Position numbers and translations under genes: made by a program. A stretch of 16,776 nt of DNA, from the NCBI GenBank assembly GCA_046861385.1, contig JBHHTW010000040.1, positions 1 through 16,776 of the forward strand, written 5' to 3'. Source of the stretch: Fidelibacterota bacterium. GTDB lineage: Bacteria > Fidelibacterota > Marinisomatia > Marinisomatales > TCS55. Shown here piece after piece: positions 1 through 16,776 of the stretch. The notes beneath the pieces are model-generated. The model was not told where the DNA came from, made no database searches, and was given only the letters and a program-made list of their open reading frames with translations. Position 1 is the stretch's first letter. Each line of letters starts with the position of its first letter.

Positions 1-785
1 GGAAAATTTTGTTTTAGCTGAAATGAAAGAGGAACGTTGTCTGTCTCTACAGTGATGGTGGTTGTATCTTCACCAGTTCCAAAGAGGATCACTTCTTCTG
101 AACCATTTACGGGATCTGAACTAGTAATGAATACTGTGTCTGTGAATATACCTGATTCTATGGGTATAAATTGAACTCCAACTTGCAAGGAATCTTGCGG
201 TTCTAATGAAGATATTGGATAGTAAGATAAGGCAAAGACCGAATTATTTTGTAGAGATAATCCAAAGGTCATTAGCACAACCCCTGTGTTCTTTATGGTA
301 AATGTCCATACGTCTGATTGGGAACCAATAGGTACTATCCCAAAATCTTGTTCTGATTCGGACACTTCTAATACCGGAACGGCTAAAGAAAAATAACATG
401 CAGAATAAGAACCATACCCAAAAGTACCATCACCGGTTGTGAAAATGGGGTCCAATTCATACTCATCAAAACCGTTCCCTAAATTTGTCCAGAGAAATAT
501 TCGGATCGAATCACCATCATCAAAGCCGGGAAGGTTGTATTGTTCTGAACCTTCCCAAGCGGTAACGGCAAAATTACCGGACCCATCATAGATATCGGTA
601 CCAACACAAAGTGTATCTGCAAAAAGGCCTATTTCATCTCCGGTTTGAAGGTGGAAACTATTTACACTATCCGTCAAAATAATTACTTGATAGGGCAACC
701 CGGTTGAATCTACGGATTCAAAGTGATTTTGAGGGAAAATGGTCCAACTCATGAGTAGAAATACAAATACAGGTCCCGGTTTCAT
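1..785 (-). CDS. Secreted protein, 3'-truncated by the window edge: signal peptide, GDEIG..CVG module, ASH/choice-of-anchor-D-like Ig domain, start of a C-terminal sorting (T9SS type A/FlgD-Ig-like) domain
   Basis: Not in the ORF track. Hand translation from ATG at 785 stays open to base 1: MKPGPVFVFLLMSWTIFPQNHFESVDSTGLPYQVIIL...LQTGDEIGLFADTLCVG...DFGIVPIGSQSDVWTFTIKNTG...FIPIESGIFTDTVFITSSDP...VILFGTG...PLSFQLKQNFP. RBS TAAGGAG overlaps the upstream stop codon, 6 nt before the ATG. Confidence 0.9.
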   Translation of the reverse strand, partial: MKPGPVFVFLLMSWTIFPQNHFESVDSTGLPYQVIILTDSVNSFHLQTGDEIGLFADTLCVGTDIYDGSGNFAVTAWEGSEQYNLPGFDDGDSIRIFLWTNLGNGFDEYELDPIFTTGDGTFGYGSYSACYFSLAVPVLEVSESEQDFGIVPIGSQSDVWTFTIKNTGVVLMTFGLSLQNNSVFALSYYPISSLEPQDSLQVGVQFIPIESGIFTDTVFITSSDPVNGSEEVILFGTGEDTTTITVETDNVPLSFQLKQNF

Positions 786-791
786 GGGATA

Positions 792-798
792 CTCCTTA
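792..798 (-). promoter_or_regulatory. Shine-Dalgarno site TAAGGAG for the 785..1 gene, overlapping the TAA stop of the giant gene
   Basis: Minus strand reads TAAGGAG-TATCCC-ATG. Confidence 0.8.
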
Positions 799-3700
799 TT
801 TCAGCAGTAGAAGTTTCTTACTCTTGTGGAATTCCGGTGTTTCCAGCCGGTATATATATACACCGCTTGGAACCGGTTTGCCCCTTGCGTCTTTTCCTTT
901 CCATGTTGCTCTATGAAAATTTGCCAACTGAAATTCATCCAATATGACCGCAATTTTTTGCCCAAGCATATTATATATTGTAATACGAACTCGAGTATCA
1001 TCGGGCAGTTGATAGGGAATAATCGTCGTTGGGTTGAAAGGATTAGGATAATTGTTTCCTAAAGCATAAGAAGTTGGTAAAACATTTCCACCCGTTGATG
1101 CTCTTTGAATAACCGAATAATTCGCTCCTTCAAATTTGGTCTCCTCTTCGCGGCGGAATTCCGCAAATAGTGGGTAAACCGTACCATATTTAGTTGAAAA
1201 TAACTTTAATTTAATCGGTTTATTTTTTGTATATCCCTGGACGTCGCCAGTTTCATTCCCAGCCCAAGATGTTATTGACAACGGCCAATCGCCGGTATAA
1301 ACACCTGCCCCTACGCATAACTCATCATCGAAAAGACCAATTTCATCACCAGTTTGAAGTTCTCTGCCTTCAAAATCAGCCGACTGAATTACAACTGCAT
1401 AAGGTAAACCGGTGCGATCGTATTCAAAATGTTTCACTATTGGAATTTCATTTGCTATTGTCTTGGATAGCGTATGAGTTACGGAAGGATATGTAAAATT
1501 CAAGTCAGTCATTCCCGATAGGAAAATCTTATATCCTTTTCCGGGCTCAAAATTTCCAATCGTATTCACATCCATTGATGGAATCCAGGAACCACCGTCG
1601 GCATCCTGAATAATATCAATTGAATCGTGTATTTCAGAAAAGATTGAAGTATCCGAAGCAGTCTCAGGTAAATAACCAATATAATTCCATCGGCTCGCCT
1701 GAATGGTCAATGGCCAATCGGACTTTTCGACGGGCAAACCTGGATAGCTGAATTCTGCATTTGTCGAATCAAAGAATAAGTAATAGCCTTCTGTTAAATT
1801 AACCTGTCCGATCGTATTGACTGCATAATCAGGGATAAATGCGCCGCCGTGATCATCATAAACAATCTTTAACCCGTCAATATTTCCAAAAACGGTATTT
1901 GCATCCTGATCTTGGGGAAACATATTTAATGAAACGAGATTAAACTGCCCGGCAGTGATACCAATATTATTTATAGAATAAACTGTCGCATTGATTGAAC
2001 CTTCATTAAATCCATTTGCGACAAATGATCCATCGCCCGTTTTTAAATCCGTTATTTCACCAGTACCGTATCGAAATTGACTGTTGTTCCAAATTTTTAT
2101 CGTATATGAGTTCGATTCAGTGAAGCCATATGATTTAATGACAAATGGAAAATTATTATTAAAAATTCCAGCCCCAACGCAGGAGTCTCCTTCAAAAATA
2201 GCTATTTCGTCACCTGCTTGAAATTCATTCCCATCAATATTCCCATTATTCATTACAAAGTAAAATGGATCACCCGTTTCCTCCGAAGGAGAAAACTGCA
2301 GTGCAGGGATAAATGTGTAGTCTGTCATTAATAATAACGGAAGCTCTATATAAGGATCCGTTTTATCATTTGATGCATAAGGAATCATATCAGTAACCGC
2401 TCCGACATTGGCGGGTGGAATCGTAATCCCGACATCTACTGACGATGAGGTTAGAACAGTACCGGAAGTATTCGAAAACATATTGCTTTCCAATAAACTG
2501 CTTCCACCAAACCAATCCAGGTTTTCACCCGGAGGCTGCCATTTGAGATATGTATTAGCAGACCCGCCATATTCAATATAATCAATTATTACTTCATGGA
2601 CTCCTCGCTCTATATATTGGTTATGTCCGCACCAGCAGCATCCTCCTGATGAAAAAATCTGATTGCCATCGATGAATATTCTGATATTATCATCAATACA
2701 ATATTCAAAATAATAATCACCGGAGGAATAAAGGTTGACCATACCTGTCCATCGGATATGAAAATTATCACTTGGGACACCCGAAGGTAATTGAGAAGTA
2801 TCATCCCAATTAAAATTAATATTATCATCCGCTCTGACCGCCAGTAACTCAGAAAAATTATTCCAATCACTGTTGTTGTAGTAATAACCGGTCAAGAAAT
2901 GCCCCAGACTATCATCTTCTAATACATAAGACAAATCTTTTACACCATTATTAATAATCTGAAAATTGACAAATGACGTATCTCCAGCAGCGGTTGATTG
3001 AATCAAATAGCTCGGTGAAAACGCAATCTCGGCAAGTCCGGGACGCCCGGTAACAGAAACGGAATGGATGCTCTCGGATTGGGGATAAACAGATGTAATA
3101 ACAAATTTGTAGTCCAGATTATTTGTCAGACTTGATACGGATGCAGTCGTATCGGTCGTTAATAAACTAAAAGTATAATCCGTCTCAGTTGCTAATTTGT
3201 AATACACATTATAACCCGTTAATGAATCTCGATTCACTGCTGACCATTCCAGGGTCACTTCTTGATCATTTCCATCGATTATAGCGAGGTTATGTGGATT
3301 ACCATGATCGTAATAATGAGCGCCCATATCTAATATGGAACCATCTGGATCAGTATATAAAATATATCCGGCATCAATTAATGGAGATGTACCTAAAAGG
3401 GAATAATTATTGCTATCCACTTCGACAAACTGTGGGTCGAGATAGATATTGGAATAAATATCTGAGGGATCCCCGTTAATATTTTCGTTGTTCACTGTTC
3501 CCATATCTGTGGGATATCCTGAACCGGAAAGCAAATTTTCATTATTCCAAAAATTGTTGTTATTAATATCAATTGACCCGTTATTATTTTCTACGTATGC
3601 GGCATAACGACTATCTGTAACAACATTACTGTGCAGGAAAATATCGCCACTATTATTATACAGATATACTGCTGCTCCATCTGATCCATTGTTATTATCC

Positions 3701-6700
3701 ATATCAGCATTTACTAATGTATTATTGTTTATCTCTATATCATGACTATTATCCCTTATTTCCAAGCTGTTTTCATACGTATCGTAAATGGTATTATTGC
3801 TTATTTTTTGTTCATAAGAATCATTTTCAGTAAAATTCCTGCTATTCTGGTAGTATATCCCCTCACGGCAATTATTGATTTCATTTGAAACAATTTCAAA
3901 AAAACTTTGATTTACATAAATACCATGTGTGTAATGAGTATTGTGTTCGATTGAGTTATTTTTAATCAGTCCAAAACAGTCGTGGTGAATTCCGATATAG
4001 CTCCTCCCCGTCAGTGTGTTTCCGGTAATAATCAATGGCTTTATTACACGCAGATACATTGCCTGATTATCATAATTGTTATAATCTGAATAGAAAGAAT
4101 TATTTGATATTGTTAAACCAATACAATCATAGGCTGCTATGTCATTACCATAGTTTTGGTAGAAAGTATTGTCCGATATAATCACATCTCCACCTGAACT
4201 CCAGAGCCTAACATTTAGAACACCTCCATCTTGATTTTGGTCCTGGTAATTATATGAAAAAATGGAATTTTGTACAGAATAATTTCTATAACTACCATAA
4301 AAGGCGATAGCTCCCCGTGCGTTATGGCTGAATCTGCAATGGTCAAATTGAACATCCGATACGTGGTTGATGCGCACTACACCACTGGCGACCCATTCAC
4401 TCCAGCCGTCTCCATTTTCAAATATACAATAATCAAACCTTGATCCTTTTGCATTGTCATAAAGGTGTATATATTCCCAATCACCCGGGCTCGGTTGGCT
4501 TGAATGAGATGTAAATAGGATGGAATCGTGTTCAGTGCCTGATGCAAATATCGGGCCTTGGGCGTCAATTCGATAATAGTCCTCAAAAGCAATAATAACT
4601 CCTGGTTCGATCCAGAGTGTATCATTACTTGAAATAGACAAATTTCCAGTAACCAGGTAATAAATATCAGATGCCAACGTCCCGGAAATAGAGCCCGATA
4701 ATTCCTGAACTTCCCTGGCAATTAATTGAATCGTACCAAAATCATAATTATTACTGAGGAATACAGAAGACAGGTGTACAGGTACACAACCCTCTTTAGT
4801 TATATCGACGGAATAAATAGAAATGGGTAGAATAATGTCAAAGAATCCAGCAATATCCGTAAATACACTGTCCAATACACCGGAAGATGTTTCCGGGTGA
4901 AAAACGATTTTGACACCTGAATGATCAGTTGCATTTTCAATCTGGACTAGTCCATTTGCAATAATAATCATACCGTTATCCGAGATGGCAGATGCTTCAT
5001 CAGCGATAGCTAACTCTCTGCTGTTGTCATCATTAAATATGCCTGTTACTTTGTAGTAATATTCTGTTCCTTCCTCCAAACCGTCATGAGTGTAACTATT
5101 TTCTCCGGAGAAAAATGTAGATAGTTGATTTTCCGTCGTAATCTCCACATCAGGATCAGTACTGTAATATAGATTGTAACCCAATAAGGTACTACCGATC
5201 GGTACAGGGGTTCCCCAGGTTAATGCAATGGATCCGTCATTCTGGGAAACTGCGTTTAGGTTTACCTTGGATTCAAATAAACTGACGTTAAAACGATGGT
5301 ATTCATAAGGGACATAGTAAGGTGATGTCAATGTATCTGATCCATCGGTGATTTCAATAAAATAATTTACTCTGTCGAATAATGATTGTCCGGGTATGTC
5401 ACCGGAATAGTTTTTGCCTGTTGTATTTACCATACTGACTGATGTCCATTCTGACTCATTAAATCCCTCTGCCTGGAGTAAATTGGGTGCATAATCGGCA
5501 TATGCTGCGTTTATAATATTCCCATTATTTTGATTATTGGAATAATCAATTGCAGTAGTGCTTGGATCTTCATTAAAGCGCCAGTATCCAACGAGACCGG
5601 TTTCAGTACCAAAAATCTCCCGGTTCATATTCGATAAGATATCACCGGATGTCCTGACTATGTTCCAGATCCTTACTTCATCGATCGCTCCGTTAAATTC
5701 CTGACCGTGATGACGGCGATAACCAATTGTAAGTCCGTCCGGAGAATAGTTGATTGAACCGCTGTTCTGCCAATCCCAATTTCCATCCAAAGCTCCATTG
5801 ATGTACAATTTCGCACTATTTCCATCATAAGTGGCAGATATATGATACCACTGTCCCGTATTCAACTGGGTATTACCGTCCCAGCTACTACTACCCGTAT
5901 TTGTCCAAATATGCCAACGGATTCTGCGATCCCAACTATCATAAGTGAGTAAAAACCCTTCAGTCCCGTTATTTGCGCGGTTAGATAAAATATACGAATT
6001 CCCCGTCGAGGTGGGTTTTATCCAGGCTTCGACAGTGATCGTATTTCCAAAATAATAGTTGCTATGGTGAGGAATTTCTACGCGGTCTCCGGAACTATTC
6101 CCGTCAAATTCCAAAGCAGTATTGTTTCCGTTATCGGCATAAAAGCCATTCGGTATAACCCGGTAAAATAATGTAGACGTAATAGATTGATTCAATAATG
6201 GCGTAATAGAGGTGTTTACTGTATAAGGACCTACCGTATCGCTGGCAGCTGTGAGTGGCGTATGATCTATTAAAAAAGGAAAATAAAAAGGTTTTGCTCC
6301 CATATCAGATACGGTACTATCAGCATCCAGGTAATGGGGACTACCTGCATTGATGGCAGGTGAAGATACTCTTAACTCATAATCAACATAATTCTCAAAT
6401 TGGGGATCTATGAAAATATTGGAATAGATATCCGCTGGATCTCCATTGGCGTTGGTGGCAATGACATCACCAAAGCCCAACGGAAAATCTGTATCTTGAG
6501 TCAAATTATTATTGGCATAAAAGGAGTTGTATGATATATCCATGAATCCATTATTATTTGAATTAATTCCATTGCCATTTCCGTAAATAATATTGCTATG
6601 AATGGAAAGGGAATCATTATCATAGACGTAAATTCCTCGATGTCCATTTGAAAAACCAACAATTGTGTTATGATGTGCTTCAATTAATCTATTGTTATAT

Positions 6701-7932
6701 TCAATTTGCAATCCTTCATAACAACAGTCTTGTGGATGTCTCACAATTATATTACCAGATATCTGGGGCGAATCAGTTTTATTTTGATAATTATTATTAT
6801 AACCAGAATAATAAAGTTTTCCCTCGATATGGTTGTTTTTTAAATCAACATGCGCGTCGCTCCAAACACCGATAGCATTCCAAGAATTAACATCCGTCAA
6901 TACATTATTTGAAAAAGTAATTAGTGAATTATCATGAAACTGCACCGTCCAATCGTTCTCAATATTATTAAATAGACAGGAATCAATAGTAGCTGTGGAC
7001 CAGCCATTTGTATATAAAGCATGTCTGTTACCATTTAAAAAAGAAGATGTTTTTAACTCAATTTCTGAGCGATTGCTAATATAAAAGCCATCATCAAAAT
7101 TTGATAATATTAAGTTTCTATATATTACCTGCGAATGGTGGTTATTAATATTCCAATAATTATTACTTCCACCGGAAAAATTAGAATTTTTCACATTTCC
7201 ATACGAATATGAAAGATACAGATCACCCCGACCACTATTTCTGAATGAAGTATGGTTAATAGATACCAAAGAAGAACTTATTTCAAGTTGAGCAGTGTTT
7301 CCACTACCGAAAGTGAATACACAATAGTCAAACTGATTAGCCAGATTGGTTGAATCATTATCATCATAATAAACATATACACTACCCCAGTCACCTGCGG
7401 CTGGTGGAGACATGGCAGATGTAAAATATATCGAATCCTGTACTGTTCCATTAGCAGTGATAGGACCATAGCAGCTAATATTATAATCCCCAGCAAACAT
7501 AATTCTAACCCCAGGGTTTATGGTGAGAGTAGTATCGCTTGGTACAATCAAATCACCGGTAACTCTATAAATATGATCGGTAGTGAGCGTACCGGATAGT
7601 GTATCAGAAATTTCAACTATTGTTCCCGATTGAAGTGTCACATTGGATAATGTCGTACTCTCAGTTATGTACACATTACTCATATATTCGGGAAGGTAAT
7701 TGTCCTTGGAAAATTCTACATTATAAATACCTATTTCTAAGGCAGTATTGTATTGACCGTCTGAATCTGTTATTGTGCTGTCCGTCACAGCACTGGGGGA
7801 CATGGCAGTAAACAGCACTCTTATTGAAGAGTGATCTTGTTGATTTTCTAAATACGCATTTCCATCAACATTAACCTGTGTAGCATACAAGACTGAAAAA
7901 ATTATTAAAAAGATTGCATAGTACTTTTTCAT
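796..7932 (-). CDS. 2378-aa secreted multidomain surface protein: 2x (carboxypeptidase-regulatory-like domain + right-handed beta-helix), LamG-like jellyroll, 2x FN3, PA14, repeated beta-sandwich modules, C-terminal sorting domain
   Basis: Signal peptide MKKYYAIFLIIFSVLYA. Asn-rich beta-helix repeats capped by DPQF...SPAINAG and SPLIDAG. LamG motifs ITVEAWIKP, WYHISATYDG, GAIDEVRIWN. FN3 motifs IALTW..GYNLYY and LEEGTEYYYKV. PA14 motifs INFNW, FHIRWTG, IDYIEYGG. C-terminal YALGNNYPNPFNPTT...SGVYIYRL...KKLLLLK. RBS AAGGTG upstream. Confidence 0.92.
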   Translation of the reverse strand: MKKYYAIFLIIFSVLYATQVNVDGNAYLENQQDHSSIRVLFTAMSPSAVTDSTITDSDGQYNTALEIGIYNVEFSKDNYLPEYMSNVYITESTTLSNVTLQSGTIVEISDTLSGTLTTDHIYRVTGDLIVPSDTTLTINPGVRIMFAGDYNISCYGPITANGTVQDSIYFTSAMSPPAAGDWGSVYVYYDDNDSTNLANQFDYCVFTFGSGNTAQLEISSSLVSINHTSFRNSGRGDLYLSYSYGNVKNSNFSGGSNNYWNINNHHSQVIYRNLILSNFDDGFYISNRSEIELKTSSFLNGNRHALYTNGWSTATIDSCLFNNIENDWTVQFHDNSLITFSNNVLTDVNSWNAIGVWSDAHVDLKNNHIEGKLYYSGYNNNYQNKTDSPQISGNIIVRHPQDCCYEGLQIEYNNRLIEAHHNTIVGFSNGHRGIYVYDNDSLSIHSNIIYGNGNGINSNNNGFMDISYNSFYANNNLTQDTDFPLGFGDVIATNANGDPADIYSNIFIDPQFENYVDYELRVSSPAINAGSPHYLDADSTVSDMGAKPFYFPFLIDHTPLTAASDTVGPYTVNTSITPLLNQSITSTLFYRVIPNGFYADNGNNTALEFDGNSSGDRVEIPHHSNYYFGNTITVEAWIKPTSTGNSYILSNRANNGTEGFLLTYDSWDRRIRWHIWTNTGSSSWDGNTQLNTGQWYHISATYDGNSAKLYINGALDGNWDWQNSGSINYSPDGLTIGYRRHHGQEFNGAIDEVRIWNIVRTSGDILSNMNREIFGTETGLVGYWRFNEDPSTTAIDYSNNQNNGNIINAAYADYAPNLLQAEGFNESEWTSVSMVNTTGKNYSGDIPGQSLFDRVNYFIEITDGSDTLTSPYYVPYEYHRFNVSLFESKVNLNAVSQNDGSIALTWGTPVPIGSTLLGYNLYYSTDPDVEITTENQLSTFFSGENSYTHDGLEEGTEYYYKVTGIFNDDNSRELAIADEASAISDNGMIIIANGLVQIENATDHSGVKIVFHPETSSGVLDSVFTDIAGFFDIILPISIYSVDITKEGCVPVHLSSVFLSNNYDFGTIQLIAREVQELSGSISGTLASDIYYLVTGNLSISSNDTLWIEPGVIIAFEDYYRIDAQGPIFASGTEHDSILFTSHSSQPSPGDWEYIHLYDNAKGSRFDYCIFENGDGWSEWVASGVVRINHVSDVQFDHCRFSHNARGAIAFYGSYRNYSVQNSIFSYNYQDQNQDGGVLNVRLWSSGGDVIISDNTFYQNYGNDIAAYDCIGLTISNNSFYSDYNNYDNQAMYLRVIKPLIITGNTLTGRSYIGIHHDCFGLIKNNSIEHNTHYTHGIYVNQSFFEIVSNEINNCREGIYYQNSRNFTENDSYEQKISNNTIYDTYENSLEIRDNSHDIEINNNTLVNADMDNNNGSDGAAVYLYNNSGDIFLHSNVVTDSRYAAYVENNNGSIDINNNNFWNNENLLSGSGYPTDMGTVNNENINGDPSDIYSNIYLDPQFVEVDSNNYSLLGTSPLIDAGYILYTDPDGSILDMGAHYYDHGNPHNLAIIDGNDQEVTLEWSAVNRDSLTGYNVYYKLATETDYTFSLLTTDTTASVSSLTNNLDYKFVITSVYPQSESIHSVSVTGRPGLAEIAFSPSYLIQSTAAGDTSFVNFQIINNGVKDLSYVLEDDSLGHFLTGYYYNNSDWNNFSELLAVRADDNINFNWDDTSQLPSGVPSDNFHIRWTGMVNLYSSGDYYFEYCIDDNIRIFIDGNQIFSSGGCCWCGHNQYIERGVHEVIIDYIEYGGSANTYLKWQPPGENLDWFGGSSLLESNMFSNTSGTVLTSSSVDVGITIPPANVGAVTDMIPYASNDKTDPYIELPLLLMTDYTFIPALQFSPSEETGDPFYFVMNNGNIDGNEFQAGDEIAIFEGDSCVGAGIFNNNFPFVIKSYGFTESNSYTIKIWNNSQFRYGTGEITDLKTGDGSFVANGFNEGSINATVYSINNIGITAGQFNLVSLNMFPQDQDANTVFGNIDGLKIVYDDHGGAFIPDYAVNTIGQVNLTEGYYLFFDSTNAEFSYPGLPVEKSDWPLTIQASRWNYIGYLPETASDTSIFSEIHDSIDIIQDADGGSWIPSMDVNTIGNFEPGKGYKIFLSGMTDLNFTYPSVTHTLSKTIANEIPIVKHFEYDRTGLPYAVVIQSADFEGRELQTGDEIGLFDDELCVGAGVYTGDWPLSITSWAGNETGDVQGYTKNKPIKLKLFSTKYGTVYPLFAEFRREEETKFEGANYSVIQRASTGGNVLPTSYALGNNYPNPFNPTTIIPYQLPDDTRVRITIYNMLGQKIAVILDEFQLANFHRATWKGKDARGKPVPSGVYIYRLETPEFHKSKKLLLLK
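3310..7878 (-). repeat. Internal protein-level duplication: module A about 7878..6285 and module B about 4970..3310
   Basis: ENQQDHSSIRVLF vs ENATDHSGVKIVF; GPITANGTVQDSIYFTS..P.AGDW vs GPIFASGTEHDSILFTS..PSPGDW; NGDPADIYSNIFIDPQF vs NGDPSDIYSNIYLDPQF. Confidence 0.85.
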
Positions 7933-7959
7933 GACAACACCTTTATTGAATTGCTTAAT

Positions 7960-8895
7960 TTATTTCCATACCGTTATAATTCCAGACTGGACTCGTTGTA
8001 AAACAGAATTATTGTAAATATCCCGGACTGTACACTCCTCATTCAATGTGATGGTTGAATTCTGAATGGAGCCTATATGGGTAAACATGAATCGAATTAA
8101 TGTCCCCGATCCTGTCACGCCAGTTACATTTCCACCTGCCAATCCCAGATCCATTGCAAATTTTCCTTTCTGATCATCCGATTCGATAAATGATATAATG
8201 TAGCCAATACTTTGGAGAAGAAAATCTGTCGAATCATCCTCCAACGAATAATTTTCCATTTTCAAATCATTTGGATTATATGTTAATCCGATGTGAGTAC
8301 CCATAAAATCAACTACATCGTTTAATCTCAGGTACATGAAAAATGTTTTTCCTGAATCAATATATGCATGGCCTGGAGAAATAAATAATTCGGTACCTTC
8401 TTCAACATTTACATTGAATTCTATCCGTGGCCAGTTGTTTTCATTAATATCAGTTGGATAATGACTTCTTATTTCTACGGTATAATCTTTATCTTCTAAG
8501 TTTGTTAATGTCAGTAGATGGTATCCCGTTAATGAATCGTATTTCCAGAATGGAAGGTTTTTTCTCATAATATCATCCCCGGAAAATCTGGTTGACCACG
8601 TTTTAGAATCTACACGGAACGAATACAATATTTTGTGGGGAATTCGTGTTAGTGTATTCGATGAATCCGGCCAATATAGACTATTCGAATGACGAAAGGT
8701 GAAAGCCACTTCATTGGAATCAATGATATCACCATCTAAAGGACCTGAGAACACAGTTGTGGACGGTGATACGTAATTAGGATCTTTTGGGTCAAATAAA
8801 TTATCTACATCAGAAACAATAACGGTACATGACCATATTAATAATAAGATGGCACTTAAACATATGTAATATTTATTGAGGGGATACTTATACAA
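7960..8895 (-). CDS. Probable lipoprotein with an N-terminal Ig-like domain and a C-terminal cohesin-like domain
   Basis: TTG start with GAGG 8 nt upstream. Hydrophobic stretch ending LLLIWS-C (Cys23), then DNLFDP. The C-terminal ~145 aa fits the cohesin pattern (LFISP...GKTF.MYLRL...MGTHIGLTYNPNDL...GVTGSGTLIRFMF). Confidence 0.8.
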   Translation of the reverse strand: MYKYPLNKYYICLSAILLLIWSCTVIVSDVDNLFDPKDPNYVSPSTTVFSGPLDGDIIDSNEVAFTFRHSNSLYWPDSSNTLTRIPHKILYSFRVDSKTWSTRFSGDDIMRKNLPFWKYDSLTGYHLLTLTNLEDKDYTVEIRSHYPTDINENNWPRIEFNVNVEEGTELFISPGHAYIDSGKTFFMYLRLNDVVDFMGTHIGLTYNPNDLKMENYSLEDDSTDFLLQSIGYIISFIESDDQKGKFAMDLGLAGGNVTGVTGSGTLIRFMFTHIGSIQNSTITLNEECTVRDIYNNSVLQRVQSGIITVWK

Positions 8896-8917
8896 CCCTA
8901 ACGCCTCATTGATTTGA

Positions 8918-8923
8918 ATATTA
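8918..8923 (-). promoter_or_regulatory. Putative -10 element (TAATAT) of a class II CRP-dependent promoter
   Basis: If the box is centred at -41.5, positions -12..-7 fall on 8923..8918 = TAATAT (4/6 to TATAAT, including the key T, A and final T). Predicted TSS is about 8911-8910. The region is AT-rich, so chance matches are possible. Confidence 0.55.
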
Positions 8924-8944
8924 ACTAATAAATATGATAACCTC

Positions 8945-8960
8945 TGTGATATTAATCACA
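8945..8960. promoter_or_regulatory. CRP-type (cAMP receptor protein) binding site
   Basis: TGTGAT-ATTA-ATCACA: 10/10 match to TGTGA-N6-TCACA with 6-bp palindromic arms. It is intergenic and abuts the adenylate cyclase stop codon. Confidence 0.78.
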
Positions 8961-11546
8961 CTATTTTGCTGTTAATCTCCATATACCATCCCAATCTTTT
9001 CCCGGTGGATTTTCCTTAAAATGCTTACATCGGAACACATACACTTTACTGGGAGTCGTTGGGCGGGTTGGAAACTCGTCTTCTAACTTAGCGGATGCTT
9101 CAAATTTACTCAACGCATCATTCCAATTTTGGTTATTATAAAGTTCAAGACCACTATGAAATAATGCCAACATTTCGCTTGTATTATCATCTAATTGCCC
9201 TTTTTCAGCTAGTAGTTCATATACATGTACCGGTAATTTTTTACCCTTAACGGTTACATAATCTAATAATCGCCACTCGAACTGATCTTTTACTTTTTCA
9301 TACGTATTTTCAGCTGCCTGGATATACACACCATATTGTTTTGAAGAAGATTCCAGCCTCGAAGCCAAGTTTACAGTGTCACCCATCATGGTATAATTCA
9401 TACGCATTTCAGACCCCATATTACCCGTGACCATTGGCCCTGAGTTTAATCCAACTCTATGGCGTAAATTATGTACTAAATCCGGCATCTCGGGGTCGTG
9501 GGTCCATTTTTCTCTTAATTCTGCAATTCTCTTTTCCATTTCTAATGCTGTTTTGCAAGCTAAATACTCATGGTTTTCTACAGGAACTGGTGCGCCATAA
9601 AACGCAACTATCATATCCCCAATATATTTATCTAATGTTCCTTGATTATTAAGTAAAATATTTGTCATCTCTGTCAAATAATCGTTCATAAGCCGAACCA
9701 TAATTTCCGGTTCCATCACTTCTGAAAATGATGAAAAATTCTGGATATCAGAAAAGAATGCTGAATGATAGCCTGCATCCCCGCCCAATTTAGGTTCTTG
9801 CTTTTCTTCGTACATTTGATCGATGAGTTCCGGGGAAATATATGCACCGAATGTACTCTTTAAAAACCGTTTATCTTTTTGCTCATTAAGAAAGCGATAT
9901 AAAACATTACTGACATAGGTAATCATAATCCCCACAATGGGTGCCACCATAGGTAATACATAACTTTCACCTATACCAGGTAAGCCAATTTTAAACCAAC
10001 CACCATTAGGAAACAATTGCCCTAAGGATATTTTAACCATCCACCAATTATCATTCATGAATGCGCCGCAAACGACACCAAAATATACGACTCCTTCGAA
10101 AAAAACCAGTGCAGCGGCAATGATTGGATTCACAAAATCCAATAGGAAAAATGCAATGACAGCTAGTAACGCAATTAAAAGAATATGTTCCCAAGGCAAC
10201 CCGTGGTTTGTTAGGTCTGTAACCGCCCCTCCCAATGTTTTAATAAAATTCCTATGTAATATCGTTTGCATCGCGTTGGCATGTGTTTCCATCCCTGGTG
10301 TCAGTTGTTGAATACCCATATAATTATAAAAAGGGGTTGATTTCACATCATGGATGACTTCTACCGCAACACCGATGATAACAATTTTATTATAAAATGG
10401 AGTTTGGGTTATATCAAAATCACTCCCCATTCCCAAGGCTTCCATGGTGGCCTTCCTATCGTCAGGATCTTCAATTTCCATAATCCATTCCGGAAGTTCA
10501 CCCGGAAGAAATTGCGACATCCAATCAACATCTTCCATTGGGTCTTTTAAATCAATATCTTCCGTATCGATTACGTGAGCTACTGAAAATCGAGGAAAAG
10601 TACCCCAGGGTGGCAGGTTTTCCGCTGTTTGTACCCTATATCCGGAAGCCGGACCGTAATAATTTACCAAGAACGTATTACTTCTGCCATAAGCATCAAA
10701 AGAATAGGGACCAAATGACCAAATTCTATTCTTTTGGTCATATCGTATGATGGCGGTATCCGGTATACCAGTAAATGCTTTAATGGCTTTTATACCTAAT
10801 GTCAAATATGCTTTATTTGGTTCATGCGCCATGTATCCTGCGATGGCATAACGCCTGGAAAATCCATCATCATCCATTTGATCATTTATTAACCCTGTTT
10901 CCGGATGAGCTGTCATCACATCTTTATTTGGGTACGAAATGTACTGTGGAGGCTGTCGATTTGGTTCTGTGACCATTTTTACGTTGATGACTATCTCGGT
11001 TCCATGTGCTTTCGCTTCTGCTATGGATTCAGCTAGCATTTTATCACCATGCTTGGGAACCAGATAAGGTAATGCTTCCTTTATGTTACCAGCCAAAACC
11101 GTATCTTCATGCTGTGGAATTAGACGACTGATGTTCTCTTCATTTAACTCATCAATAAAATTGTGAAGGTTTTCTGATTTTGTTTCATTTGAATCAAACT
11201 GGATATCGAAGGCGATCACCTTCGCTCCTGCCTGGTAAAGATTTTGGATGACTCGAGCCCAAATAGTTCCCCGAGGGTAAGGCCATTCTTCGGGCATCAA
11301 TCGCCATGCCTCATCATCGACTTCCAATAAGACTATATCTGTTCCAATGCTGGAAAATGAGGAATCTCTTGCTGTCCAACCTGTTAATGGACCGCGAATG
11401 CGGTTAACACGAAAATCATATGTTTTCATTTCCATTATGTCAAATACGCCAATCCAATGAAACAAACATATTAAAGCGATGGAAAATATGGTCAGTGCAA
11501 AGCCGATCCATTTTTTATTAATATATTTTAGTAATTTTTCCATCAT
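8961..11546 (-). CDS. Membrane-bound CHASE2-domain class III adenylate cyclase
   Basis: N-terminal TM. CHASE2 motifs DIVLLEVDD, WPYPR, GAKVIAFDIQF, DDDGFSRR, KIVIIG, PGMETHANAMQTIL. Three further TMs. Catalytic motifs FSDIQNFS, TLDKYIGDMIVAFYGAP, GNMGS..RMNYTMMGDTVNLASRLE, VKGK. C-terminal TPR-like tail ending WDGIWRLTAK. Confidence 0.96.
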   Translation of the reverse strand: MMEKLLKYINKKWIGFALTIFSIALICLFHWIGVFDIMEMKTYDFRVNRIRGPLTGWTARDSSFSSIGTDIVLLEVDDEAWRLMPEEWPYPRGTIWARVIQNLYQAGAKVIAFDIQFDSNETKSENLHNFIDELNEENISRLIPQHEDTVLAGNIKEALPYLVPKHGDKMLAESIAEAKAHGTEIVINVKMVTEPNRQPPQYISYPNKDVMTAHPETGLINDQMDDDGFSRRYAIAGYMAHEPNKAYLTLGIKAIKAFTGIPDTAIIRYDQKNRIWSFGPYSFDAYGRSNTFLVNYYGPASGYRVQTAENLPPWGTFPRFSVAHVIDTEDIDLKDPMEDVDWMSQFLPGELPEWIMEIEDPDDRKATMEALGMGSDFDITQTPFYNKIVIIGVAVEVIHDVKSTPFYNYMGIQQLTPGMETHANAMQTILHRNFIKTLGGAVTDLTNHGLPWEHILLIALLAVIAFFLLDFVNPIIAAALVFFEGVVYFGVVCGAFMNDNWWMVKISLGQLFPNGGWFKIGLPGIGESYVLPMVAPIVGIMITYVSNVLYRFLNEQKDKRFLKSTFGAYISPELIDQMYEEKQEPKLGGDAGYHSAFFSDIQNFSSFSEVMEPEIMVRLMNDYLTEMTNILLNNQGTLDKYIGDMIVAFYGAPVPVENHEYLACKTALEMEKRIAELREKWTHDPEMPDLVHNLRHRVGLNSGPMVTGNMGSEMRMNYTMMGDTVNLASRLESSSKQYGVYIQAAENTYEKVKDQFEWRLLDYVTVKGKKLPVHVYELLAEKGQLDDNTSEMLALFHSGLELYNNQNWNDALSKFEASAKLEDEFPTRPTTPSKVYVFRCKHFKENPPGKDWDGIWRLTAK

Positions 11547-11548
11547 AA

Positions 11549-14260
11549 TTAGAAATTATACCTAAAAGAAAATAAGACACCTGAAGTATTGATTGCAGTT
11601 TCTTCTTTTGTACTTCGTATTTGAATATTTCCTGTTAATAAGGCATTCATCCCAGCCATAATATTGTATTCAACTCCAGAGTTAATCCCGTACATCTTTA
11701 TTGGGGTTGTTCCTGTATTTGTTAAATATGATAATCCACCAGTGATTTTCAAGCGATTATTCCATATAGAATAACTCCCCTTTGTATTGATGGTCGTCCA
11801 AGCCAATTCATTGAAATAAATTAAACCACTCTCATTTTGGATGGGTACCTGAATTATTGTCCGGCTGACATTAAACACCGTTCGCAACGGTATTCCGTAT
11901 TTTGTAGACAAGGCTGTTGAAACTGTTTTGGAGTCAGATTTTTGGAAAAAGAATCCTTTTTTTCGTTCACCTGCTAAGAGGTCTTTATTGGTTAAACTAT
12001 TTAGATTTATATTCAGATTATGCTTTAGATGACCGGTGGAAATAGGGTAAGTAATCGAGAAAAATGTATTATTTGATTTCGTATCCTCTCTAAAGTCCAC
12101 TAATTCATCAGCAACCAGCTCAAATTCTTCCTTGCTGTTATTTTTTCCAATCGATTGAAAATTGACAACATAAGATGGCGAATCCGGACCGGGCATTAAT
12201 GTAATTCCAAAAGATATGCTGCTTGTAATCAGCGGATCTTTAACAGTGGAAAGAATTTTGTTATCCTGAAACTTATACATGGCATTAAACATTAGTTTAT
12301 TATTCAATAATGACAACCGGTTTGATAAAGTAAATTCACGAATATTATTTGTTAAATATGGATTTGCCAGAGATACAAATTCAGGTCCTACTTGCCGATA
12401 TTGAATTGTGAATTTGTTATACCTATAATTTCCAGATAATCGAAGATGAAATGCGGAAGATGGCATGTTGATTATAGTTGAAATCGGATTTTTGCCGAAG
12501 GAGACCGGATCAATAGGAAGTAATGGAATCATATTAATATTAATAATAAATAAATTTTTATATGCCACGGGATCGAATATGGAACTTGTATCAATCAACA
12601 TAGACCCTTCGCTCACGATACCGTTATCGTCATAGGTTGTGGCAATCAAACCGTCTAATGTATCATCCAAAGCTGTGTCAAGTTGTGTTCTTGTCATAAC
12701 ACCGTCCCAAATATCTCTGTTAAATAAACTCATATTCCAGCTCAAGTCAAATTTCAACCTATCTTTATCCAAAACCCGACCAACATCAAAACCCAATACA
12801 ATATTGTCTTGAGGTTTAGATCCATTCCAATTATTTGTTGGGAAAACGACCGTACCATTTTCACGGTCGACTGCATCCAAAAAATCATTGTATGAATAGG
12901 TACCTGGAGGAATGTTATATAGACTGTCGTTATAAGTCACATCTGTGCTGTCAACAAAAAAATTTCCTTTTGAGATATATTGATTTACTGAATTTACATC
13001 ATCAGTTACCTTCATAATATGGGATCCAAATTGAATATTATAAAGATCAATAGAAAATCTGGTTAATGATATGTTTCTTTCAAAAGTATAGCCACGTCGA
13101 TCTAATGTAAATACAGGCCTGGTTAGTGAATCAATGGTTGTCTCATTACCCAATAGGGAATAACCGCCATCAATTTTATTTAAATGTTGAACAGGTCTAT
13201 TTAATTGACCGCGAATAACTTGGATCTGAAAAAATTTCAGGTCCAAATCGACACTAATTCCGCGTACCCTTCTCCCATCGAGTGTATACGCGCTGATTGA
13301 CTGATAAAAATCACCAAAATTCACATCGAGATATTTCATGAAATTCACATTAAATGTGGAACGATTTAATGGCTGTAAATATGGATTCTCACGAGTGGTT
13401 TTTCTATAATTAATTTTCAGTTTCGCATATTCAACATTAGCGCTGCCTTTGAAGTTTAATTCTGCAACATTTAATAATTCACCACCCACTAAATCAGAAG
13501 AAATCTTGGAATTCACTTCCCCATCGTAATCTAATTGAGATGGGATAATTGATCCTCTCTTGATCTCAAATGTCCATTCTGTCGGGGTCATTTTATGTCC
13601 ATCTTCAGCTGCAAGTGTTATGGTTACATGTTGAGTGCCTGCTTCTAAATTTATTGGAATAAATGTGATAATCCCCCCGCTAATTTCAGTTTTTTGAGTA
13701 ACATTTTTTCCGTTGAATAATAATTGAATACTGTTAGAATCAAAATTGGGAACATTAAATAAACTTGCCGCAATAATCACATCCTTTTGGTTGACAACGG
13801 AAGAAGGCTCTGGCGAAAGAATTAATACATCTGCACTTATTGGTTCATCAAAGACCGGTTCCTCTAAAGCGCGCAAATTATTAATACTATGAGGTGGTTT
13901 TACTGGAATAAAATATGGATTTTCAAATGGATTACCATCATCCGGTGCTGCCAAAGCAGCGCCGTTTGCCAAATGAATTATAAAACAGTATTCAATTCCT
14001 TTTTGTGACAGGGAATTTCCATCGATATTCATTTGCCAAGTGGAGCCAAATTGAATCAATCGTAGTTCTTGATAACTTATATTTCCCTTAATACGATAAT
14101 ACCCTTTTGCTTCTATAATTTCCGAATCAACTATTGGAAGAACACTCAGTGTTAAATCCTCTCCAACTATGGCTCCAAACGGCTGCTCATGAAATAGTTT
14201 GGCCCCATAGAGAAGGGAAAAAGTAATTAAGGGAATTATTACAATTAGTATCCGTCTCAC
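11549..14260 (-). CDS. Probable outer-membrane beta-barrel protein with two N-terminal Ig-like domains
   Basis: GTG start and signal peptide. Residues from ~243 on show alternating amphipathic strands (VNFGDFYQSISAYTLDGRRVRGISVDL; YRQVGPEFVSLANPYL) and end in a BAM-type signal with terminal Phe (VLFSFRYNF). Only 2 nt separate it from the cyclase start. Confidence 0.8.
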   Translation of the reverse strand: MRRILIVIIPLITFSLLYGAKLFHEQPFGAIVGEDLTLSVLPIVDSEIIEAKGYYRIKGNISYQELRLIQFGSTWQMNIDGNSLSQKGIEYCFIIHLANGAALAAPDDGNPFENPYFIPVKPPHSINNLRALEEPVFDEPISADVLILSPEPSSVVNQKDVIIAASLFNVPNFDSNSIQLLFNGKNVTQKTEISGGIITFIPINLEAGTQHVTITLAAEDGHKMTPTEWTFEIKRGSIIPSQLDYDGEVNSKISSDLVGGELLNVAELNFKGSANVEYAKLKINYRKTTRENPYLQPLNRSTFNVNFMKYLDVNFGDFYQSISAYTLDGRRVRGISVDLDLKFFQIQVIRGQLNRPVQHLNKIDGGYSLLGNETTIDSLTRPVFTLDRRGYTFERNISLTRFSIDLYNIQFGSHIMKVTDDVNSVNQYISKGNFFVDSTDVTYNDSLYNIPPGTYSYNDFLDAVDRENGTVVFPTNNWNGSKPQDNIVLGFDVGRVLDKDRLKFDLSWNMSLFNRDIWDGVMTRTQLDTALDDTLDGLIATTYDDNGIVSEGSMLIDTSSIFDPVAYKNLFIININMIPLLPIDPVSFGKNPISTIINMPSSAFHLRLSGNYRYNKFTIQYRQVGPEFVSLANPYLTNNIREFTLSNRLSLLNNKLMFNAMYKFQDNKILSTVKDPLITSSISFGITLMPGPDSPSYVVNFQSIGKNNSKEEFELVADELVDFREDTKSNNTFFSITYPISTGHLKHNLNINLNSLTNKDLLAGERKKGFFFQKSDSKTVSTALSTKYGIPLRTVFNVSRTIIQVPIQNESGLIYFNELAWTTINTKGSYSIWNNRLKITGGLSYLTNTGTTPIKMYGINSGVEYNIMAGMNALLTGNIQIRSTKEETAINTSGVLFSFRYNF

Positions 14261-14298
14261 TACAAAAGTCCGTGTGAATTTATGAAACGGAGAAACGT

Positions 14299-14982
14299 TT
14301 ATTGAATATCAATTAGAAGCGTTTTTATTTCCCCATTGGGACCTTCCAACTCGATTTCAATTTGCGAACCCGTAGGTGTTTCGACATCAGGATCGTCTGG
14401 TATATTATCAGGATTTGTCTCAGATGTTTCAACGCTTCCATCCAAGGCTGATATTCCTGTCATACCAGAACCTACATCCATAGATTCCCCACTTAATAAA
14501 TTTGTGAGATTAACGAGACCTTCGAGTCCAATCAACATATCTCCAGCATTAGGGTCTGTTATCATCCAAAAGTCAGTCCCTTTTACAGATGCTACAGATG
14601 TTGGGCTCTGAACAATAAAATCACTATTATTTTGTTTACTCACTTGGGCACGTAATGTACCCGAATCCACATTCACTTGTTTAGAAATTGATCCTACGGT
14701 TCGTTCTCCCATAACCATGACTTCTGTTTTTTCTTTTACTTTAATCATAGACTTGTCATCTATATAAATAAAGATTACAAAACCATCTTCACCCGTCTTA
14801 ATTCTGTCTCCATCCGAAAGAATAGTACCGGTTTTTAACCTAGAAAAACCACTTTTCCCAGCAGCTTCAATATTGGCTTTACCGGATACTTTTGTGGTAA
14901 CAGCAACTTTAGAGGAGCTCTGTAGAGGTGTTGCAAGAAGTATGATAATAAAATAACCGAGTATCCGTTTACGAAAAGCCAT
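14299..14982 (-). CDS. Exported FecR-domain protein
   Basis: Signal peptide. FecR motifs LSDGDRIKTGEDG, SMIKVKEKTEV, FIVQSPTSVASVKGTDF, LEGLVNL. Acidic Pro-rich linker and a short beta tail. The ATG overlaps the upstream TAA (TAATG). Confidence 0.9.
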   Translation of the reverse strand: MAFRKRILGYFIIILLATPLQSSSKVAVTTKVSGKANIEAAGKSGFSRLKTGTILSDGDRIKTGEDGFVIFIYIDDKSMIKVKEKTEVMVMGERTVGSISKQVNVDSGTLRAQVSKQNNSDFIVQSPTSVASVKGTDFWMITDPNAGDMLIGLEGLVNLTNLLSGESMDVGSGMTGISALDGSVETSETNPDNIPDDPDVETPTGSQIEIELEGPNGEIKTLLIDIQ

Positions 14983-16172
14983 TATTCTTCCACCGAAATA
15001 TTTGTAATGACAGCATTTTGACTAATGATCCGATTGATCACGGCCATAATTGACGATTGATCAGAGGCATTACCATCTACGGAATAAGAACCAGTTGGTG
15101 TATATCCCTCTAATGAACCACCTGGGCCAAATAATGAACTAAATTGGTCTGACGTAAAAGCCTGGCCAAGTAATTGAATCACCGGATTCACACTCTGGGG
15201 AACTGGAGATGATCCGCCGATATTTCCGATCTTAAAAGCAAATATTGAAGAAATGATTTCTTCATTTCCAGAAGTAGTGGGTAAGATTGCTTTGACTTGC
15301 CATACGTATATTTTATTATTTTCTAACAAGCGAGCATCTGAGACAGGATATTGAAAACTGGTGACATTTCCAATCGATTCCCAATCTTCCGTTTGGTCAA
15401 AGGGCAACATCGTTTCATCCTCCATTGCATCATCTATGGAAGAATGAACACTTGGTTTAAATTCTGATACTCTAATTAACATGTTACATTGTGAACATAC
15501 CTGTGGATACCATGTAAATAACGGAAATGTATTATAAATTTCATTTAGAGACGTATCTGCCAATGCGCCACCTGGGGACTCCAAATTTATATAAGATGGA
15601 GATTCAACTACGATGGTAATTTCTTCAGTATCTGTTAATGACAGGTCATCTTCAGTTTGACCACTATAGATTTGTATTCCAAATGAATATTGTCCATCCG
15701 CCAGTCTTCCAGTGGTAAGGACAGCGCTTAATAACTGATCAAATTGAGATACATCCATTGACTCATTAATCCTGACTGATAATGGAATGGCATTGCCACT
15801 TACATCTAACAGATGGGTTGTATTTGCTGAGAAATCTTGATTGACTAAAAGTATATCTGATGACATTTGAAAAGGTTCAGATTCCACGTCGACGATAGTC
15901 GTTTTAGTATTAAGGTTTAATGCCGGTGACATTAAGGAGGCAGTAAAATTTATTTTACCATAAACAGGATAGGAACTCCCTTTAAGTCTGAACCGAAATA
16001 ACTGAAAATTGGATGCACCTGTTTGGAGATCAAAACTACTGATATAATACGTTGCGTATTCTGTAAAGCCTGGTTCGGGTTCCAGGCTAATTGTTTGAGA
16101 ATAAAGATATTCGTCTGAAAGAGAACCAGATAAAATTATTGAAAAGACTATTATGTAAAAAGTGTTTCGCAT
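14982..16172 (-). CDS. Exported 396-aa hypothetical protein with beta-sandwich domains (FN3/DUF928-like second domain)
   Basis: Long ORF with N-terminal hydrophobic signal and AGGA upstream. Motif INLESPG...PLFTW...TSFQYP...LENNKIYVWQVKA. Translationally coupled to the FecR gene. Confidence 0.8.
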   Translation of the reverse strand: MRNTFYIIVFSIILSGSLSDEYLYSQTISLEPEPGFTEYATYYISSFDLQTGASNFQLFRFRLKGSSYPVYGKINFTASLMSPALNLNTKTTIVDVESEPFQMSSDILLVNQDFSANTTHLLDVSGNAIPLSVRINESMDVSQFDQLLSAVLTTGRLADGQYSFGIQIYSGQTEDDLSLTDTEEITIVVESPSYINLESPGGALADTSLNEIYNTFPLFTWYPQVCSQCNMLIRVSEFKPSVHSSIDDAMEDETMLPFDQTEDWESIGNVTSFQYPVSDARLLENNKIYVWQVKAILPTTSGNEEIISSIFAFKIGNIGGSSPVPQSVNPVIQLLGQAFTSDQFSSLFGPGGSLEGYTPTGSYSVDGNASDQSSIMAVINRIISQNAVITNISVEE

Positions 16173-16242
16173 ATCCTATAAATCAAATTTACCCGAAAAT
16201 ACATGTTTTACCAACCAAATTCATTATAAAATATATATATAG

Positions 16243-16270
16243 AAAAGCCCCGATAAAAATCGAGGCTTTT
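16243..16270 (-). terminator. Rho-independent terminator of the rRNA operon
   Basis: Minus strand AAAAGCCTCGAT-TTTT-ATCGGGGCTTTTCT: stem with one G-U pair followed by a U-tract, starting about 6 nt after the 5S 3' end. Confidence 0.85.
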
Positions 16271-16276
16271 AATGAT

Positions 16277-16394
16277 TCCCGGCAATGTCCTACTCTCCCA
16301 CGCTAGTTTCCCGCGCAGTACCATCGGCGCTTCAGGGCTTAACTGCCGTGTTCGAAATGGGAACGGGTGTTTCCCCTGTGCTATAGTCACCGGA
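16277..16394 (-). rRNA. rrf: 5S ribosomal RNA
   Basis: Minus strand TCCGGTGACTATAGC...CACCCGTTCCCATTTCGAACACGGCAGTTAAG...GCCGATGGTACT...GGGAGAGTAGGACATTGCCGGGA. Conserved 5S motifs, complementary ends, about 118 nt. Confidence 0.97.
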
Positions 16395-16453
16395 AAATTA
16401 TTTGTTAAAAAACTATGGGAAATTGACGGGTTGTTTCTAAGCGATAAAATTTT

Positions 16454-16776
<323 letters not shown>

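Follow-up and report, generated by a model that had tools for sequence, protein, structure and literature searches.

A conserved CRP-type box as the probable operator of a class II promoter ahead of a lipoprotein gene in Fidelibacterota

The 16,776-nucleotide stretch analysed here (the window; GenBank assembly GCA_046861385.1, contig JBHHTW010000040.1, positions 1 to 16,776) comes from a Fidelibacterota bacterium and carries, in the 65-bp gap (8896–8960) between a nucleotide cyclase gene and a gene for a lipoprotein-like protein, the sequence TGTGATATTAATCACA (plus strand, 8945–8960), a TGTGA-N6-TCACA palindrome with perfect half-sites of the CRP consensus. We consider it likely that this box serves as operator in a class II-type promoter, activated by CRP with bound cyclic AMP (cAMP), from which the lipoprotein gene and the surface-protein genes following it are transcribed. 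The arms of the box (TGTGAT-ATTA-ATCACA), 6 bp each, are perfectly complementary around a centre between 8952 and 8953, and the box adjoins the cyclase stop codon, plus-strand 8961–8963 reading CTA, that is, the TAG of the minus-strand cyclase open reading frame (ORF). Read along the minus strand, on which all long ORFs around the box lie, TAG is followed by TGTGATTAATATCACA (8960–8945), 21 nt, TAATAT, 22 nt including GAGG, and TTG. The elements of the gap are as follows.

8945–8960, no strand: CRP-type operator, from the sequence and its conservation 5' of lipoprotein orthologues
8924–8944, minus strand: 21-nt spacer from box to −10 hexamer, conserved in length and not in sequence
8918–8923, minus strand: −10 hexamer TAATAT, its T, A and final T invariant at this offset in orthologous promoters
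8910–8911, minus strand: predicted transcription start, 7–8 nt past the −10 hexamer, from the geometry
8904–8907, minus strand: GAGG, Shine–Dalgarno-like, 8 nt 5' of TTG, from the sequence
8895–8893, minus strand: TTG start codon of the lipoprotein gene, from the sequence

A preliminary description of the window had placed the box directly after the cyclase TAG, had TAATAT (8923–8918) begin 22 nt after the last box base on the minus strand, and had given the 65-bp gap, the GAGG and the TTG start; all of these coordinates and distances are correct. Its remark that the window holds no other full TGTGA-N6-TCACA was confirmed by a scan of the window, which returned no second perfect box; the sole one-mismatch box, at 7774–7789 (TGTGCTGTCCGTCACA), lies inside a giant gene downstream and is most likely a chance match. 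At a 17-bp spacing from TAATAT the −35 position reads CAGAGG, a poor match to TTGACA, and a sigma-70 consensus scan called no −35/−10 pair on the minus strand of the gap. With the usual 7 nt from the −10 hexamer to the start, the box would be centred at about −41.5 and transcription would begin near 8910–8911, as judged from geometry alone. PMC5957442 places the class II CRP site of Escherichia coli at this same position, −41.5, overlapping the −35 box. Sequences similar to the GAGG occur in same-genus loci, and as a motif it is not conserved in other genera.

A single perfect box is, by itself, not beyond chance. The genome (2.43 Mb, 38.9% G+C) contains three perfect boxes where base composition predicts about 2.8 by our own arithmetic, and when one mismatch was allowed, two or more matches turned up in 22 of 200 shuffled versions of the window. 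All three perfect genomic boxes are intergenic, in a genome with an intergenic share of about 9% (crude ORF calls). With up to one mismatch, 12 of 79 boxes are intergenic, compared with 5/76, 5/53, 6/24 and 3/13 for four control palindromes; this excess is only mild, and enrichment within this genome alone is insufficient. The case rises above chance because of the intergenic context together with the conservation, in relatives, of the box and of the interval that separates it from a TAnnnT hexamer.

Thirty orthologous cyclase loci, this one included, were fetched from 40 relatives of the same order (about 165 kb in total), and homologues of the lipoprotein 3' of the cyclase were identified by tblastn. 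Such a homologue lies downstream in 13 of the 30 loci, and conservation of the box in relatives, which the preliminary description had proposed to check, is borne out in 11 of these 13, each with at most one mismatch and with the box centre 46–74 nt before the start codon. Perfect boxes occur eight times in the 165 kb, all eight upstream of a lipoprotein gene, and with up to one mismatch the box has 18 matches across the 30 loci, against none for the control palindrome AGTGT-N6-ACACT. The other 17 loci have a different gene behind the cyclase, and no box was found there; in locus L028 an extra ORF separates the cyclase from the lipoprotein gene and the box still stands 56 nt ahead of the start codon of the latter. 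It is thus to the lipoprotein gene, and not to the 3' end of the cyclase gene, that the box belongs. Accordingly, the tie to the cyclase stop codon that had been drawn initially applies as physical contact in this genus only, while elsewhere the box tracks the lipoprotein gene, 20–63 nt past the stop or behind another gene. In all, the box and its TAnnnT distance are conserved before lipoprotein orthologues of five genera in three families.

These comparisons also bear on a reading in which the palindrome arose by chance, gives the cyclase transcript a weak hairpin or terminator, or belongs to a repeat. With three perfect boxes the genome equals the chance expectation, and the arms can pair as 6 bp, but what is conserved across the five genera is the sequence and not just the pairing, with no compensatory changes, and the control palindrome has no match where the box has 18; we give this reading almost no weight. 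A terminator or hairpin was rejected on its own terms: within 8896–8960 there is no terminator-like site, no T-tract and no G+C-rich stem followed by a T-tract, and the RNA of the gap folds no better than its shuffles (minimum free energy z = +0.67). A repeat or mobile element was likewise rejected, as the 95-nt region of the gap occurs only once in the genome.

TAnnnT stands exactly 21 nt after the box in 11 of 11 box-bearing cyclase loci and in 14 of 16 further loci found by a lipoprotein profile search of the GTDB species genomes. Removal of duplicates left 16 distinct 43-mers from the five genera and three families, in which all 16 hexamers keep their T, A and final T and the half-site columns are conserved in 15–16 of 16, while the 21 spacer columns vary in sequence and the hexamer at the −35 position is poor relative to TTGACA in every one. 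The class II geometry described initially (box, 21 nt, TAnnnT and no usable −35) is thus kept in all 16 distinct promoters, and a poor −35 throughout with a −10 held at one exact offset is the signature of an activator-dependent promoter. Over 41 genomes the perfect box occurs 170 times against 34 control sites (summed columns), and box + N21 + TAnnnT has 57 oriented matches against four for the reversed control; TAnnnT at N19 or N23 is found 9 and 11 times, an enrichment of N21 of 5- to 6-fold. In another group of genera the spacer between box and −10 holds a palindrome of its own, CGATAAA-N2-TTTATCG (loci L030, L037, L046–L050, L052, L055 and L057, with a two-sided change to CGATAT-N4-ATATCG in L052), which is absent from the spacer of the window and might serve a second regulator as an operator that overlaps the core of the promoter.

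CRP-family proteins are able to repress, and the CRP orthologue could bind the box and act negatively, either by occluding the −35 region of a constitutive promoter or by roadblocking read-through from the cyclase operon. The box starts right after the cyclase stop with no terminator in between, which makes read-through plausible here. Against occlusion stand the −35 hexamers, poor in 16 of 16 promoters, and the −10 held at one exact offset; a roadblock, for its part, needs no fixed 21-nt distance to TAnnnT, yet N21 is enriched over N19 and N23, and other genera place the box 20–63 nt past the stop or behind another gene. We regard repression or roadblocking as unlikely.

Across genomes, the class II pattern (box + N21 + TAnnnT) is found together with CRP and the cyclase. 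Among the 41 genomes, the three without a match to the CRP orthologue (G014, G035 and G038) are the same three without a cyclase match, and they contain no class II pattern and one plain box in total. In a sample of 201 genomes of the phylum, 166 have the orthologue at a threshold of E (expectation value) ≤ 1e-40, and the class II pattern tallies 138 against 15 for the control. The 20 genomes listed as having no CRP match, of which family f12 contributes 13 and f15 two, have no pattern; the remaining five belong to neither family. No pattern is thus seen in the listed genomes, and the 15 no-match genomes found by difference between tables have seven; eight of these 15 belong to genus g54, where the CRP score is near the threshold, and several are incomplete. 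The f12 genomes are small (0.8–1.1 Mb), and neither the CRP orthologue nor the pattern was found in these 13. One of the 41 genomes, G033, has 24 perfect boxes, compared with 0–9 in the other 40, and a control count of 0; the excess could reflect an expanded regulon or a box-carrying repeat.

The genome encodes two proteins with cNMP_binding and HTH_Crp_2 domains, on contigs C80 and C93, next to four further cNMP-binding proteins. The search for CRP/FNR-family genes proposed in the preliminary description yields the C80 protein as the CRP orthologue (G000:C80:126911–127588, 226 aa, in one 232-codon frame; PF00027 92.8 bits, PF13545 53.9 bits). For residue comparison it was aligned with CRP of E. 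coli K-12, taken from the annotated K-12 record, to which it is 26% identical. We take R180, E181 and R185 to be the base contacts of E. coli CRP and G71, E72, R82, S83, T127 and S128 its cAMP contacts. The C80 protein keeps the G-E and R-S of the cAMP pocket and the R-E...R of the recognition helix, which reads SRETVSR versus SRETVGR in E. coli, and the helix (TSRETVSR) and pocket segment (FGE...RSA) are invariant in 30 of 30 orthologues at 56–93% identity. Its nearest solved structures are those of GlxR and Mycobacterium tuberculosis CRP, both CRPs that bind cAMP (4byy, 4cyd, 3r6s and 3d0s; E 1e-31 to 2e-30). Another DNA-binding protein could read the palindrome, the C93 paralogue being the obvious candidate given its matching domain pair, but its helix, TARQTVNM, has Q and M in place of the E and the second R, which contact the TGTGA arm in E. 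coli CRP, and the two paralogues share just 26% identity. The C93 paralogue is accordingly an unlikely binder as judged from its residues, and a binder other than the CRP orthologue is, taken together, very unlikely.

A possible source of cAMP is encoded directly beside the promoter. The 861-aa cyclase scores above the Pfam cut-offs for CHASE2 (111 bits) and Guanylate_cyc (86.4 bits), and the best solved match to its catalytic domain is Pseudomonas aeruginosa CyaB (3r5g, E 3.5e-33). In the alignment, the Lys within DKYIGD and the Thr within YTMMGD coincide with the same residues of CyaB (DKFVGD and YTIIGR) and of Spirulina CyaC, and FFSDI pairs with FFSDI of CyaB; we take the Lys/Thr pair to be that which specifies adenine in class IIIb adenylate cyclases, and the Asp residues to be metal-binding. 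These residues make the neighbouring cyclase a plausible cAMP source. The cyclase operon and a putatively CRP-controlled operon are adjacent in 13 of the 30 loci, a repetition that is suggestive only.

Put together, the mechanism we favour would run as follows. A CHASE2-type class IIIb adenylate cyclase, be it the neighbour, a paralogue on contig C54 or both, would make cAMP, which would bind the 226-aa CRP orthologue; the CRP dimer would bind TGTGA-N6-TCACA, overlapping the would-be −35 position, and from about −41.5 would recruit RNA polymerase to a promoter with a good −10 (TAATAT) and no −35, with transcription starting near 8910–8911. Binding, cAMP dependence, activation rather than repression, the transcription start and the link to the adjacent cyclase are the parts that we infer.

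Several findings weigh against this mechanism. The three perfect boxes of the genome do not exceed the composition expectation, and the regulon is therefore small. The statistical case comes from comparative data, and the relatives are not independent, so that the counts overstate independence. Two of the 13 lipoprotein loci have no good box: in L017 the left half-site is degenerate (GTGGG), and L036 has no box and a gap of 6 nt. In family f24 (genomes of 1.2–4.7 Mb) the orthologue is present, with about 50% identity, yet none of the 26 genomes shows the perfect pattern; site or spacing may have changed there. The −41.5 position is derived solely from the −10 offset. No terminator separates the cyclase and lipoprotein genes, and read-through may therefore also feed the operon. 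The class III cyclase on contig C54, the second in the genome, makes the adjacent enzyme one of two possible sources. Finally, the positions of the C80 protein aligned to T127 and S128 of E. coli CRP hold S and D, and cAMP is therefore its likely, not its certain, ligand; its score against the NCBIfam CRP equivalog (NF008732), 111.5 bits, is below the cut-off of 266, although this is its best-scoring family, and it is therefore assigned to a CRP-like orthologue group of its own and not to the enterobacterial equivalog. According to PMC12040651, moreover, the Crp homologue of Porphyromonas gingivalis is cAMP-independent.

The last three points equally favour an alternative in which the CRP orthologue binds the box and its effector is not the cAMP of these cyclases, the protein being ligand-independent or responsive to another nucleotide. 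This is opposed by the pocket, whose G-E and R-S do not vary among the 30 orthologues, by the adenylate-type Lys/Thr of the cyclases, and by the three genomes of 41 that are without CRP match and cyclase match alike, and we hold it to be quite unlikely. Activation by the cAMP-bound CRP orthologue from a class II position remains our preferred explanation, and the interpretation given in the preliminary description, whose proposed in-silico checks all had a favourable outcome, is supported as far as sequence analysis reaches.

The genes around the promoter, all on the minus strand, are listed in the order in which they are read.

14982–16172, minus strand: 396-aa protein, no assigned identity (ORF list)
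14299–14982, minus strand: 227-aa FecR-domain protein (ORF list and domain search)
11549–14260, minus strand: 903-aa protein without family (ORF list and domain search)
8961–11546, minus strand: 861-aa class III nucleotide cyclase with CHASE2 sensor (domain search and residue alignment)
7960–8895, minus strand: 311-aa lipoprotein-like protein, TTG start (ORF list and structure model)
796–7932, minus strand: giant 2378-aa surface protein (ORF list and domain search)
3–785, minus strand: immunoglobulin (Ig)-like third ORF, extending past the window edge (ORF list and domain search)
426–755, 1126–1455 and about 1966–2310, minus strand: copies of a module of about 110 aa (sequence comparison)

The genes for the 396-aa, FecR-domain and 903-aa proteins (16172 down to 11549) and the cyclase are tightly spaced, with intervals of 2 and 38 nt and one overlap of 1 nt, and are probably one sensory operon. 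A homologue of the 903-aa protein lies directly 5' of the cyclase in 29 of the 30 loci, and its look-alikes in the Atlas are only hypothetical proteins of Fidelibacterota. In L031–L035 and L039, which represent several genera, the gene after the cyclase, in place of the lipoprotein gene, starts like a response-regulator receiver domain (...ILW.DDEI..LKPHI.FLEEKGY...).

The 311-aa lipoprotein-like protein has a signal peptide ending in ...IWSC and matched no Pfam or NCBIfam family. Its structure model (predicted local distance difference test, pLDDT, 82) gives the C-terminal half a cohesin fold, with Foldseek target TM (template-modelling) scores of 0.76–0.80 against clostridial and archaeal cohesin modules and E 1e-12 against a type II cohesin dyad; on this model the protein could serve as a surface anchor for other proteins. 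The giant gene follows at 27 nt and encodes Laminin_G_3, fn3, beta-helix and PA14 domains, with a weak match to a type IX secretion system (T9SS) sorting tail (20.6 bits, under the Pfam cut-off of 27). The third ORF shares its N-terminal module of about 110 aa with the giant protein and continues into an Ig-like domain. Domain searches agree with the ORF identities proposed earlier for the cyclase, the giant protein and the third ORF. The inclusion of the giant gene in the set under the box, which had also been proposed, stands in part: the gene lies 3' of the lipoprotein gene here, but its N-terminus is conserved in that place only within the genus.

The module of about 110 aa (TGLPY...LQTGDEIGLF.D.LCVG...W), for which no family was found, is present in at least two copies in the giant protein and in one at the N-terminus of the third ORF. 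It recurs in several more downstream genes of a same-genus relative, G004 (L128 7531–13690), and on two further contigs of the genome itself, at C19:335–754 and C88:11438–13435; these contigs probably continue the surface-protein cluster of the window. A complex prediction between the cohesin-fold half of the lipoprotein and the module, made with a cohesin–dockerin pairing in mind, scored 0.00, which speaks neither for nor against binding.

Outside the lipoprotein promoter, the same pattern points to a small set of further targets. In this genome, the box at C15:5861 is followed after 21 nt by TATTTT, ahead of a gene whose 929-aa product carries a T9SS sorting tail; another perfect box, at C75:60430, stands 81 nt upstream of a CapD-like polysaccharide-synthesis gene; and a one-mismatch site at C36:11413, with TAAATT at N21, precedes a gene for a 481-aa protein without known function. 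Thirty pattern loci from relatives were inspected, 25 of them with a downstream ORF, the targets including lipoprotein orthologues, a C25 peptidase with propeptide, two MtrC-like multihaem cytochromes, a TonB-dependent receptor, a CsgG-like lipoprotein, a beta-helix protein and, three times, crp itself. About 20 of the 25 N-termini resemble signal or lipoprotein peptides by eye, several of the proteins being orthologues of each other, and a crude hydropathy test for signal peptides is positive for 21 of 25, a rough hint only, as the test is too lenient (baseline 41%) and flags two crp genes. These N-termini suggest that most targets, a few per genome, encode exported proteins.

A perfect box also lies 70–100 nt 5' of crp in six of 30 crp loci (L074, L075, L076, L081, L082 and L084), belonging to genera g3, g9 and g12, where TAnnnT stands at N21 in most cases and the cyclase loci that were fetched are without a downstream lipoprotein gene. 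This arrangement suggests positive autoregulation of crp in the three genera. For the genus of the window autoregulation was rejected, as no box lies within 1.5 kb of crp (L060–L065).

The proposed promoter can be set beside four known systems. With the class II promoters of E. coli (position as defined in PMC5957442) it shares the TGTGA-N6-TCACA half-sites, the 16-bp core followed by 21 nt and the −10, and the absence of a −35. The R-E...R helix and G-E/R-S pocket of E. coli CRP are found in the C80 protein as well, but at 26% identity, under the equivalog cut-off and in a host from the Marinimicrobia (Fidelibacterota). The regulon here looks small and made up of exported proteins, whereas that of E. 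coli is one of carbon catabolism, and cAMP would come from class III CHASE2 cyclases instead of the class I Cya. A second parallel is the CyaB–Vfr system of P. aeruginosa: CyaB is the best solved match of the cyclase, Vfr is among the solved matches of the C80 protein, and in both cases a class III cyclase with a membrane sensor would supply a regulator of the CRP family. Vfr is a regulator of surface and secretion functions. The present system differs in its CHASE2 sensor, in the probable operon of the cyclase, which also encodes a FecR-domain protein and two proteins without assigned function, and in its targets, T9SS-type cargo and a cohesin-fold lipoprotein, which are known from sequence alone. 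Corynebacterium GlxR and M. tuberculosis CRP (Rv3676), the closest solved structures, bind TGTGA-N6-TCACA-like sites and have the helix SRETVNK against SRETVSR here; they belong to another phylum, and their last helix residue is K, where the C80 protein has R as in E. coli. CrpPg of P. gingivalis, finally, is a CRP-like regulator in a T9SS bacterium too, but PMC12040651 describes it as cAMP-independent and outside the known families, whereas in the present system the residues of the pocket, the adenylate type of the cyclases and the distribution that CRP and cyclase share among relatives point to cAMP.

Marinimicrobia (SAR406, Neomarinimicrobiota, Fidelibacterota) are abundant in the ocean and almost all uncultured, and their regulation is known only from sequence; a literature search, limited to one library of papers, for cAMP–CRP regulation or adenylate cyclase in this lineage and for a link between type IX secretion and CRP found no paper. 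The mechanism proposed is textbook, and the new elements are the lineage, a small regulon made up of exported proteins and a class II distance held across the phylum, so that the advance lies in taxonomic reach and regulon content and not in principle. The analysis yields a specific regulator–operator pair open to testing, a promoter architecture that in these bacteria would combine the canonical TAnnnT −10 and a class II activator, and an initial outline of a small regulon composed of exported and surface proteins. As the operator equals the E. coli consensus, heterologous assays are straightforward and offer a culture-free route to the system. More tentatively, and with a good deal less confidence than in the operator itself, the window could be read as a self-contained surface switch of Marinimicrobia, in which an envelope module (the 396-aa, FecR-domain and 903-aa proteins and the CHASE2 cyclase) might turn an external or particle-contact cue into cAMP, and a phylum-wide CRP might, through class II promoters, switch on a cohesin-fold lipoprotein anchor and giant adhesin-like cargo here and T9SS cargo, C25 peptidases and outer-membrane multihaem cytochromes elsewhere. 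If that were so, cAMP–CRP would govern an attached or extracellular lifestyle in these bacteria, and not carbon catabolite control.

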